From sequence record PP925830.1: 40,665 nt of DNA; one strand, 5' to 3'. The translations under genes and the position numbers were made by a program. Origin of the DNA: Escherichia phage CharmingMan. Within the stretch, counting starts at the first letter, position 1, and the number at the start of each line of letters is the position of its first letter. This document shows, piece by piece, positions 10,692-11,714 of this stretch. The notes under the pieces are model-generated. The model was not told the origin of the DNA. It made no database searches and saw nothing but the letters and a program-made list of their open reading frames with translations.

Positions 10692-11714
10692 TCATGGGCG
10701 GTTAGCTCCGCGCTTCATGCGGTCAATTGCGGCCTGACTGATAAACACCTCAGCCGAACCGTCATTTGGTTTGGCATACCAGGACGCTCCTGTCCCACCA
10801 GCGGCGTTTGTGCCTGCGGAAATTTGATGGGCTCCCTGTGGCTTTTCGTCGTTCCAGCGCTCACCGTTCAGGTATGAGGCTGGAAGGAGCTTGTCGAATC
10901 CCATTTGCTGCGCCTTTGCTCGAACGCGGATATCTTCTGCCAGCATTACGGCGAAGCTATCCGGAGTACCTCGGTTTGTTTTTTTCCATTCGCGGTATTT
11001 GGTTTTAAAGGCGGATCGGGCCTTTACCTTGGCATCCTTCCTCAAACCTGCGTCCCAAAAAATATTTTCGAAAGCGGCATCGATTGGATCAGGTTCTCCA
11101 GCACCCTCAGAGTCTGAATCAGGTTTTCCCTGTGCAGGTTGACCTTTCAACTCGTCAGATTTATCGCTATCGGTCCGATTCGAATCGGACAAATTAGTTT
11201 GTTCTTGTTCTTTCTCCTGTTCCTGTTCCTGCTCTTGGCTTGCATGCCCCTTCGAAGCTCCTTCATTTTCCTCCGGGATCTGAACCTCACCACTACGGGA
11301 AAAAGTCATATTGAATTGTTTGGAGTATTTCTCGTAAAACTCTGAAAGAAATAGATTATCTGACACCTTGTTGTATTCGTTCTGCACCCCAGCACAACGT
11401 TTATCTCCTGGTTTAAGTGCCTCACCGATTTGATGCGTTGCCATTTCGATGACCCACACCATCTCAGAACGCTCGTCGTACTTACAGAACCCGGCTTTAA
11501 TGGCGCTATTAAGCCCCTTCTTAGCCCCTTCCATGGTTAATCCAGTCTCATGAGACAGGAACGCAAGGGGCATGTAATAAAGACCGATCATATTGGCGTG
11601 AGGACTGGTAAGCAGGTACAACGCCACAAGCTGAGACTCTGGCCCAGCCTGACGCAGCTCTTTGCCTGTTCTGCCAATCCAGAAGTGAGGAGACACCTTT
11701 CCGTAATCACGCAT
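10692..11714 (-). CDS. Replication initiator / replisome-organiser protein (lambda O-like position)
   Basis: Start at ATG 11714 (MRDYGKVSPHFW..., GGAGG 6 nt upstream) rather than the longer track ORF; N-terminal domain, acidic (EQ)n low-complexity linker, basic C-terminal domain; second gene after cro. Confidence 0.6.
   Translation of the reverse strand: MRDYGKVSPHFWIGRTGKELRQAGPESQLVALYLLTSPHANMIGLYYMPLAFLSHETGLTMEGAKKGLNSAIKAGFCKYDERSEMVWVIEMATHQIGEALKPGDKRCAGVQNEYNKVSDNLFLSEFYEKYSKQFNMTFSRSGEVQIPEENEGASKGHASQEQEQEQEKEQEQTNLSDSNRTDSDKSDELKGQPAQGKPDSDSEGAGEPDPIDAAFENIFWDAGLRKDAKVKARSAFKTKYREWKKTNRGTPDSFAVMLAEDIRVRAKAQQMGFDKLLPASYLNGERWNDEKPQGAHQISAGTNAAGGTGASWYAKPNDGSAEVFISQAAIDRMKRGANRP
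11172..11236. repeat. 18-bp perfect palindrome GTCCGATTCGAATCGGAC followed by six tandem hexamers (TTCTTG/TTCCTG-like) inside the initiator gene
   Basis: Palindrome at 11172-11189 read directly; hexamer array 11201-11236 encodes the (EQ)n linker. Lambda-type origins lie inside the O gene, so this is an ori candidate. Confidence 0.35.

Follow-up and report, generated by a model that had tools for sequence, protein, structure and literature searches.

Where would replication of Escherichia phage CharmingMan begin, and does the DNA that encodes the linker of its replication initiator also serve as an origin? We addressed these questions in a stretch of 40,665 nucleotides (nt) from this phage (PP925830.1), called the window below, which is that of a lambdoid phage with HK97/mEp235-like structural genes. 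An origin lying within the initiator gene is textbook for lambdoid phages, and it is the kind of element to be expected in this window. A preliminary description, made from the letters of the sequence, had pointed to a palindrome followed by tandem hexamers inside the initiator gene and had suggested that this segment may be both linker-coding DNA and origin or initiator-binding DNA. Comparison with relatives leads us to regard the element as a probable origin of lambdoid layout inside the initiator gene, composed of two exchangeable modules, in DNA that also encodes a flexible linker between the domains of the protein; we give this reading a probability of about 0.62. The coordinates of the features are collected in Table 1.

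A dyad conserved as DNA among relatives

The palindrome, GTCCGATTCGAATCGGAC, is indeed perfect over 18 base pairs (bp), although it occupies positions 11173-11190 and not 11172-11189 as first given. It is the sole perfect palindrome of at least 16 bp in the window, where its sequence is unique even when three mismatches are allowed. It had also been called rare by chance in 40 kb, which is an overstatement: when the window was simulated 300 times with a first-order Markov model, 19% of the sequences had at least one perfect 18-bp palindrome (mean 0.21 per sequence), so that the palindrome alone is statistically unremarkable. The case against chance comes from its relatives, as far as sequence comparison can make it.

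Exact copies of GTCCGATTCGAATCGGAC were found in 45 contigs of the IMG/VR database, with at least four different N-terminal domains of the initiator among them, and later searches raised the number of unrelated N-terminal domains preceding the dyad to at least five. In the 45 sequences similarity begins a few bases ahead of the palindrome, at AAAAC-TAATTT, and is lost directly after it. This set was chosen by the palindrome itself; when relatives were retrieved again through peptide patterns of the C-terminal domain only, GTCCGA-N6-TCGGAC was present at the same place in 76 of 82 distinct upstream regions. The exceptions are still dyad-symmetric (GTCCGATTCGAATCGAAC, GTCCGAACAGGTTCAGAC and GTTCGAACATGTCCGAAC), one exception has a 12-nt insertion in the dyad centre with both arms intact, and single-base variants fall in the central four positions.

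The codons covering the dyad are frozen. Among 34 non-redundant sequences, TCC is used in 33 of 33 cases, GAT in 30 of 30, TCG in 24 of 26, AAT in 23 of 23 and CGG in 32 of 33, whereas the Thr codon that comes next, with its third base beyond the end of the dyad, occurs in all four forms (ACC 14, ACT 12, ACA 4, ACG 4); codons of the C-terminal domain mostly have a normalised entropy of about 0.5-1.0. These sequences were picked partly by the dyad arms, a bias that the recount of 76/82 on the protein-pattern set indicates to be small. Covariation points the same way: over 12 distinct variants 88.9% of cells pair, both sides have changed in four of nine pairs, and the score of 0.219, against 0.097 in shuffles, was reached by two of 500 shuffles and collapses in slid registers. 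The variants encode different peptides (SDSNRT, SESVRT, SEQVQT, SDFPRT, FEHVRT and SDSKNAPNRT) and the symmetry is kept, which argues that it is the symmetry of the DNA that is conserved, not the peptide. Judged from these sequences, the dyad is under selection at the DNA level.

Relatives that have an N-terminal domain of the lambda O type (L108-110, L245, mEp043, Sf101 and ES18) carry four inverted-repeat iterons, then ACAAAAGA..TATTACAAAAGA, which is nearly identical to the AT-rich tract of lambda, then ATAAAAACAYTAT and the dyad GTCCGA..TCGGAC. The ES18 record annotates a rep_origin 'similar to lambda ori' over the iterons only, and lists gp61 as a T7-gene-4-like primase/helicase. In lambda, GTCAGAGAATTCTGGCGAATCCTCTGAC stands directly after the AT-rich tract, and many lambda-like contigs have GTCCGAGAATTC..GAATCC..GAC, with GTCCGA, GAATC and GAC in common with the window. 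Given the same position and the shared sequence, the palindrome of the window is a positional, and partly a sequence, homologue of the lambdoid-origin dyad. The bases before the dyad follow the consensus AAAAC(T/A)(A/C)(T/A)(T/A)T in every N-terminal context (ATAAAAACAYTAT in ES18 and mEp043).

Other strong dyads lie at the position of the palindrome, just after hexamer arrays, in prophages of Caballeronia, Duganella, Janthinobacterium and others (loci L264, L269, L276, L283, L284, L289 and L290). They include GTCGAGC..GCTCGAC in the Janthinobacterium prophages, GTCGAGTAAC-AC-GTTACTCGAC, ACCTCACC-TGAC-GGTGAGGT and ACTCATCACC-TATC-GGTGATGAGT, and several start with GTC and end with GAC, as do the dyads of the window, POCJ13 and lambda. 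GTC is the recognition triplet of T7-type primases. That these ends act as a primase signal is speculation, and the same termini occur in lambda, a phage that relies on the primase of its host.

Phased 9-mers and a short-period repeat tract

Relatives of the N-terminal domain of the CharmingMan initiator, here called type A, were sampled as at least 25 distinct IMG/VR sequences, four phage records and three metagenome contigs, with a contig guanine-plus-cytosine (GC) fraction of 0.35-0.65. Their layout consists of two to four copies of AAGGGGCTT or its complement AAGCCCCTT in an 11-bp period, then AAGCC, then an array of short repeats, and it is independent of the C-terminal domain; the exceptions in the sample are L170 and the truncated match L171. 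The window has two such pairs and possibly a fifth copy (Table 1), and four of its six AAGGGGC sites lie within 326 bp. The internal pair encodes EGAKKGL at codons 62-68, within what is predicted to be a helix of the winged-helix domain, and the linker pair is followed by an invariant AAGCC (11241-11237) directly before the hexamer array.

At codons 62-68, GAAGGGGCTnnnAAGGGGCTT (GAA GGG GCT nnn AAG GGG CTT) is present in nearly all of about 27 distinct homologs, which come from contigs of 35-65% GC and in which the flanking codons vary freely. Normalised synonymous entropy, calculated over 29 distinct genes, is 0.7-1.0 along most of the gene, 0-0.2 at codons 62-64, 66 and 68, 0.39 at codon 67, and mostly near zero across codons 148-160. 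Moreover, the 9-mers are oriented differently in different lineages, and both ways within one contig, and such a flip alters the peptide (EGASKGL versus EAPSKPL) while the DNA is retained. The composite pattern AAGSSSSTTNNAAGSSSSTTNNAAGCCARGA was found in the genomes of 40 species, against about 0.03 expected by chance according to our own calculation, and in 37 of the 40 it has a type-A N-terminal domain as its neighbour; the host groups are Beta- and Gammaproteobacteria, Desulfovibrio, Acidobacteriota and Planctomycetota.

These sequence patterns make the phased 9-mers (AAGGGGCTT) likelier initiator-binding sites than the palindrome, part of the segment for which such a role had been suggested. 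The palindrome is an unlikely target of the specificity domain, because, across all the N-terminal domains with which it is found, it remains linked to the C-terminal domain and the primase/helicase; the better candidates, at 11244-11263 and 11511-11530, lie just outside the segment singled out in the preliminary description. A literature search for the exact motifs gave nothing of relevance: neither palindrome turned up, and the 9-mers did so in unrelated primer lists only.

The tandem hexamers, on the other hand, are present as described: 6.5 copies were delimited by Tandem Repeats Finder at 11199-11237, reading CAAGAG CAGGAA CAGGAA CAGGAG AAAGAA CAAGAA CAA on the minus strand and encoding QEQEQEQEKEQEQ (residues 160-172), a (QE)n stretch without T on the coding strand. 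All but two of the type-A homologs examined have such an array, 18-48 nt long. In a contig of 35% GC the hexamer is CAATAA, and across homologs the DNA is translated in all three frames (QEQEQE, KNKNKSRNK and RAGTGAGAG). The array, of period 3/6, abuts the 9-mer sites and is a candidate unwinding or single-strand-binding tract at the position of the lambda AT-rich region. In adjacency and period it recalls single-strand elements of the DnaA-trio type, by analogy only. DnaA boxes show no excess in the window, and none is close to the palindrome and hexamers. Separately, a stretch at 11295-11366 shows a relative GC dip at codons 116-140 that is common to 18-25 of 29 homologs; the DNA may unwind here instead, or the dip may reflect amino-acid composition.

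An initiator of two domains and a disordered linker

The features lie, as had been proposed, within a replication initiator gene (10692-11714, minus strand), whose product matches the PHROG families phrog_1701 and phrog_270, annotated as DnaD-like loader or replication initiation protein. Its layout is a winged-helix-like N-terminal domain (about residues 1-140), a disordered linker (about 141-210) and a C-terminal domain common to 'O' proteins of the ES18 gp59 type. An AlphaFold model of residues 1-164 has a predicted local distance difference test (pLDDT) score of 86.9 and is confident to about residue 140; from residue 141 on, where the palindrome and hexamers are encoded, pLDDT is about 50 and disorder is predicted. 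Because the model is disordered after about residue 140, the segment does encode an inter-domain linker. Of the dual role suggested for it, the linker half therefore agrees with the model, and the origin half finds its support in comparison, namely the ES18-type position of the dyad and the selection of palindrome and repeats as DNA.

The modelled N-terminal domain consists of a helix-turn-helix and then a beta-hairpin, and its Foldseek matches are solely winged-helix proteins (MarR, CRP and ArsR), with weak expect values (E 0.03-0.1). Neither domain of the initiator matched a family in a Pfam search with E up to 10 or in a sequence search of the PDB, and the N-terminal domain thus does not fall in Phage_rep_O. 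The lambda-type setting that had been assumed accordingly applies to the layout, but not to the N-terminal domain, which is not of the lambda O family. The C-terminal domain model, built from 9 homologs only, has a pLDDT of 62 and gave meaningless Foldseek matches with E above 2.

It might be argued that all these are features of the protein alone, (QE)n being a flexible acidic linker that expands by slippage, SDSNRT a peptide motif (e.g. for partner binding or proteolysis) and the palindrome a by-product. The disorder of the linker segment in the model, the freely varying third positions of the QE codons and the 19% of simulated windows with an 18-bp palindrome would all fit. Yet TCC, TCG and CGG, each one of six codons, are used in 24-33 sequences beside a fully degenerate Thr codon, the dyad symmetry persists where the peptides of the site differ, the hexamer DNA is read in three frames, and the neighbouring 9-mers flip with a changed peptide and unchanged DNA. 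We therefore consider a protein-only explanation highly improbable.

Two modules meeting at the dyad

A tblastn search of phage records with the initiator gave two separate homology blocks, residues 1-200 and 175/209-293. The N-terminal 150-200 residues are matched in the Shiga toxin (Stx) phages POCJ13 and 75/02 and in Klebsiella, Ralstonia and Acinetobacter phages, and residues 175/209-293 in the 'O' proteins of mEp043, epsilon34, ES18, Sf101 and others. In the record of the Stx phage Min27 (EU311208, L112), the annotated 'O' gene at 1052-1752 is out of frame with the conserved C-terminal domain found by tblastn, which points to a frameshift or mis-annotation in that record.

The dyad is followed about 600 bp downstream by the same primase/helicase, at 68-99% identity, in all 45 dyad loci extending far enough, and ES18, mEp043, Sf101 and Min27 have that primase/helicase at 62% identity. 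Type-A initiators with other C-terminal domains are without it and have DnaC- or DnaB-like genes instead, as in POCJ13 and the Klebsiella, Ralstonia and Acinetobacter phages. Being co-inherited with the primase/helicase, the dyad therefore belongs to a C-module, which by this distribution comprises the dyad, the C-terminal domain, the small open reading frame (ORF) of 35 amino acids (aa) and the primase/helicase. The N-module comprises the winged-helix domain with its own 9-mer repeats and repeat tract. A purine-rich coding-strand tract of 35-50 nt (GAACAG, GGAAR or GAAGAA repeats) is present just before the spacer and dyad in every dyad contig, and other N-modules found on the same dyad have their own repeats upstream of this tract (ACTCACTGA, CACGCG, AGCGTTAC and GTCACGNC). 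The spacer is the left edge of the block common to all C-terminal modules and the apparent module junction.

Such a junction could also mean that spacer and dyad are boundary homology at which lambdoid phages recombine initiator halves, conserved through crossovers and without a role in initiation. The block lies exactly where unrelated N-modules join one C-module, sequence diverges fast on both sides of it, the lambda record places recombination points 39157/8 and 39165/6 at the border of the AT-rich tract and the dyad, and the current minimal ori-lambda leaves the dyad out. Crossover homology need not be palindromic, yet the modules carry differing dyads at one position (window, ES18, L108, L246, POCJ13, lambda and the Janthinobacterium prophages with GTCGAGC..GCTCGAC), and the changes in them are compensatory or confined to the centre. 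We regard a boundary devoid of any part in initiation as unlikely; a boundary and an origin are not exclusive of each other.

Alternatively, the dyad may be a symmetric operator for a dimeric protein, or a messenger RNA hairpin, regulating the downstream replication genes through pausing, coupling or autoregulation. Its conserved arms and variable centre (7+4+7) are typical of dimer-bound sites, it co-inherits with the downstream genes, and a 7-bp stem is possible. The hairpin is however modest as a single strand (-6.3 kcal/mol, z -2.2), a scan of 10400-12400 with E up to 1 gave no Rfam match, there is neither a U-tract nor a near start codon, the next start being 480 nt downstream, and the dyad occupies the homologous position of a known origin. 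Regulation of this kind seems to us very unlikely.

A further reading, which we advance tentatively, is that the origins of this large group of temperate phages are bipartite and modular in their DNA as well as in their proteins, so that any N cassette joined to any C cassette still fires, with the crossover inside the origin. The dyad would then open the C cassette as the cis site of the helicase side (C-terminal domain, 35-aa ORF and primase/helicase), where it would signal loading or priming for that helicase module specifically. In the N cassette, the winged-helix initiator would recognise the repeat tract as single-stranded DNA, and one pair of its phased 9-bp sites would lie within the sequence encoding its predicted DNA-binding helix.

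How the element may work

Under the reading we prefer, that of a two-module origin of lambdoid layout within the initiator gene, the N-terminal domain would bind the phased 9-mers and distort the DNA, the adjacent strand-asymmetric repeat tract would open, and the C-terminal domain would recruit the primase/helicase. These steps of binding, opening and loading are modelled on lambda O and plasmid Rep systems (PMC5043065, PMC7466680). The dyad, at the helicase-side edge of the region opened, may be a hairpin or cruciform or a symmetric binding site, and could stabilise the opening or position loading. At the level of sequence, the anatomy of the element, its selection as DNA, its positional and partial sequence homology to lambda and ES18 and its inheritance by modules can be read directly from the comparisons above.

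Several points weigh against this reading. What is said above of binding, opening and loading, and of the dyad, is prediction by analogy. The fold matches of the N-terminal domain are weak, and for the C-terminal domain neither structure nor family searches were informative. With a GC fraction of 0.43-0.50, the hexamer tract is not AT-rich like classical unwinding elements, and the AT-richest 60 nt of the initiator gene are elsewhere, at 11300-11359 (GC 0.25), between the two 9-mer clusters and 60-120 bp from the hexamer tract. Conservation in the QE frame could be that of the peptide alone, because third codon positions vary freely. In lambda, the origin is described as iterons plus AT-rich tract (39034-39160), with the dyad left out (PMC3349717; iterons plus AT-rich tract also in PMC7466680 and PMC5043065), and lambda-like contigs tolerate changes in lambda's dyad. 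Finally, among type-A loci with other C-terminal domains, a strong dyad follows the hexamer array in 16 of 30 and 9 of 38. These are the loci above the 10% background level, and a dyad after the array was accordingly rejected as a general feature of type-A origins. As a strong dyad is not universal in type-A genes, it is an accessory that certain modules have and that the origin as such does not need.

In the literature searched, no description appears to exist of the type-A phased 9-bp sites, including the pair inside the coding sequence of their own DNA-binding domain, of a short-period repeat tract conserved as DNA across phyla, or of a dyad under DNA-level selection and inherited with the helicase module. 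If the proposed origin is right, it gives a testable anatomy to an initiator family that is widespread, lacks a Pfam match and goes under varying labels in phage records (hypothetical protein, 'primosomal protein I', 'DNA-binding protein' or 'replication protein O'). Origins would become predictable from sequence in these phages, with related initiators in Stx-converting phages (POCJ13, 75/02) and in Acinetobacter and Klebsiella prophages, and swaps of initiator halves without loss of origin function would be explained. It would also provide a clean system for asking what the dyad long noticed beside lambdoid origins does. Papers on how Lamassu/DdmABC sense palindromes and the lambda origin serve here as a general reminder that defence systems can sense origin-associated hairpins.

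Gene neighbourhood

The nearest records are Escherichia phages Fraca and LMessi, which are 88% identical across the initiator gene and are the only phages to match it; when 5,426 complete E. coli genomes were searched by megablast, the gene had no counterpart in them. Downstream, the 35-aa ORF, annotated in the LMessi record, overlaps both flanking genes, its ATG and the TGA of the initiator gene forming ATGA, which suggests translational coupling. The primase/helicase is the probable partner of the C-terminal domain of the initiator.

Table 1. Features of the replication region of the CharmingMan window
Feature	Position	Strand	Remarks
Primase/helicase, 623 aa, ES18 gp61 type	8717-10588	-	Toprim and DnaB-like ATPase
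35-aa ORF, MKTILKRVLVAGYNCGFLREGFVTWCFIKFDLRSV	10588-10695	-	Position of ES18 gene 60; between initiator and primase/helicase genes
Initiator gene	10692-11714	-	340 aa, starts MRDYGKVSPHFW; ORF and translation
Perfect 18-bp dyad, GTCCGATTCGAATCGGAC	11173-11190		Encodes (L)SDSNRT, in initiator linker
Spacer, (A)AAC-TAATTT	11191-11198	-	Conserved, between purine tract and dyad
Hexamer array, (CARGAR) x6.5	11199-11237	-	Tandem Repeats Finder: period 6, 78% matches, weak score 36
Linker 9-mer pair, AAGGAGCTT (11263-11255) and AAGGGGCAT (11252-11244)	11244-11263	-	11 bp apart
Internal 9-mer pair, AAGGGGCTA (11530-11522) and AAGGGGCTT (11519-11511)	11511-11530	-	11 bp apart
Possible fifth 9-mer copy, AAGGGGCAT	11565-11573	+	Opposite orientation

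Upstream of the initiator gene lie a DUF4222 gene, a cro-like gene, three operator-like repeats and cI (12274-12951, plus strand). The repeats, three copies of TACCCACAGGTAAT (two exact, one 86%) at 12210-12263 within the 98-bp gap between the cro-like gene and cI, are presumably the right operator. At 11909-11922, across the point where the cro-like stop and the DUF4222 start overlap, lies a perfect 14-bp palindrome, TGTGACATGTCACA. Exactly three copies of the 12-mer GATGCGTTGCCA are present in the window, at 11432-11443 (plus), 11969-11980 (plus) and 12342-12353 (minus), all within 920 bp, a number of copies reached in 0 of 100 shuffles. One copy lies in each of the initiator, cro-like and cI genes, in a different reading frame in all three, and relatives with different immunity regions retain it in the initiator gene only.

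Comparison with known origins

The origin of lambda consists of four iterons, an AT-rich tract of 38-40 bp and a hyphenated dyad within gene O. The candidate origin of the window likewise lies inside the initiator gene, in the DNA of the inter-domain linker (residues 148-181 of 340), its order along transcription is repeats, strand-asymmetric purine-rich tract and dyad, and GTC(C)GA..GAATC..GAC is shared between the lambda dyad and the palindrome. The two differ in their repeats, which are 19-bp inverted repeats in lambda and 9-bp direct units of 11-bp period in the window, and in the tract, AT-rich in lambda and (CARGAR)n of about 45% GC here. Moreover, the N-terminal domain of the window's initiator lies outside Phage_rep_O, its C-terminal domain is unrelated to that of lambda O, and a phage primase/helicase stands in place of P and host DnaB. 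Furth and co-workers reportedly found in 1978, using lambda/phi80 and lambda/82 hybrids, that the N-terminal domain determines specificity for the origin and the C-terminal domain that for the helicase side.

ES18 is similar on the C-terminal side. The C-terminal domains are homologous, with 50-65% identity over residues 175/212-293, a small ORF and a T7-gp4-like primase/helicase follow, and the dyad GTCCGA-N6-TCGGAC, preceded by AAAAC..T, opens the C-terminal module in both. Its N-terminal domain is of the lambda type with inverted-repeat iterons of 18-19 bp, whereas that of the window comes with AAGGGGCTT repeats and hexamers, and the dyad centre is AAGTGT in ES18 and TTCGAA in the window. 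The gene 59-60-61 replication module of ES18, which occurs also in mEp043, Sf101 and epsilon34, was reportedly described by Casjens et al. in 2005.

The iteron origins of the plasmids RK2, F, P1 and pPS10 also have helix-phased direct repeats beside an opening region and a winged-helix initiator (PMC5043065). Plasmid iterons are however 17-22 bp long and lie outside the rep gene, whereas the window has 9-bp units of 11-bp period in coding sequence, one pair of them inside the coding region of the DNA-binding domain itself. Finally, oriL of SPP1 lies inside gene 38, which encodes the initiator G38P, and is thus an origin within its initiator's own gene as proposed for the window, with unrelated proteins and repeats and in a phage of a Gram-positive host.

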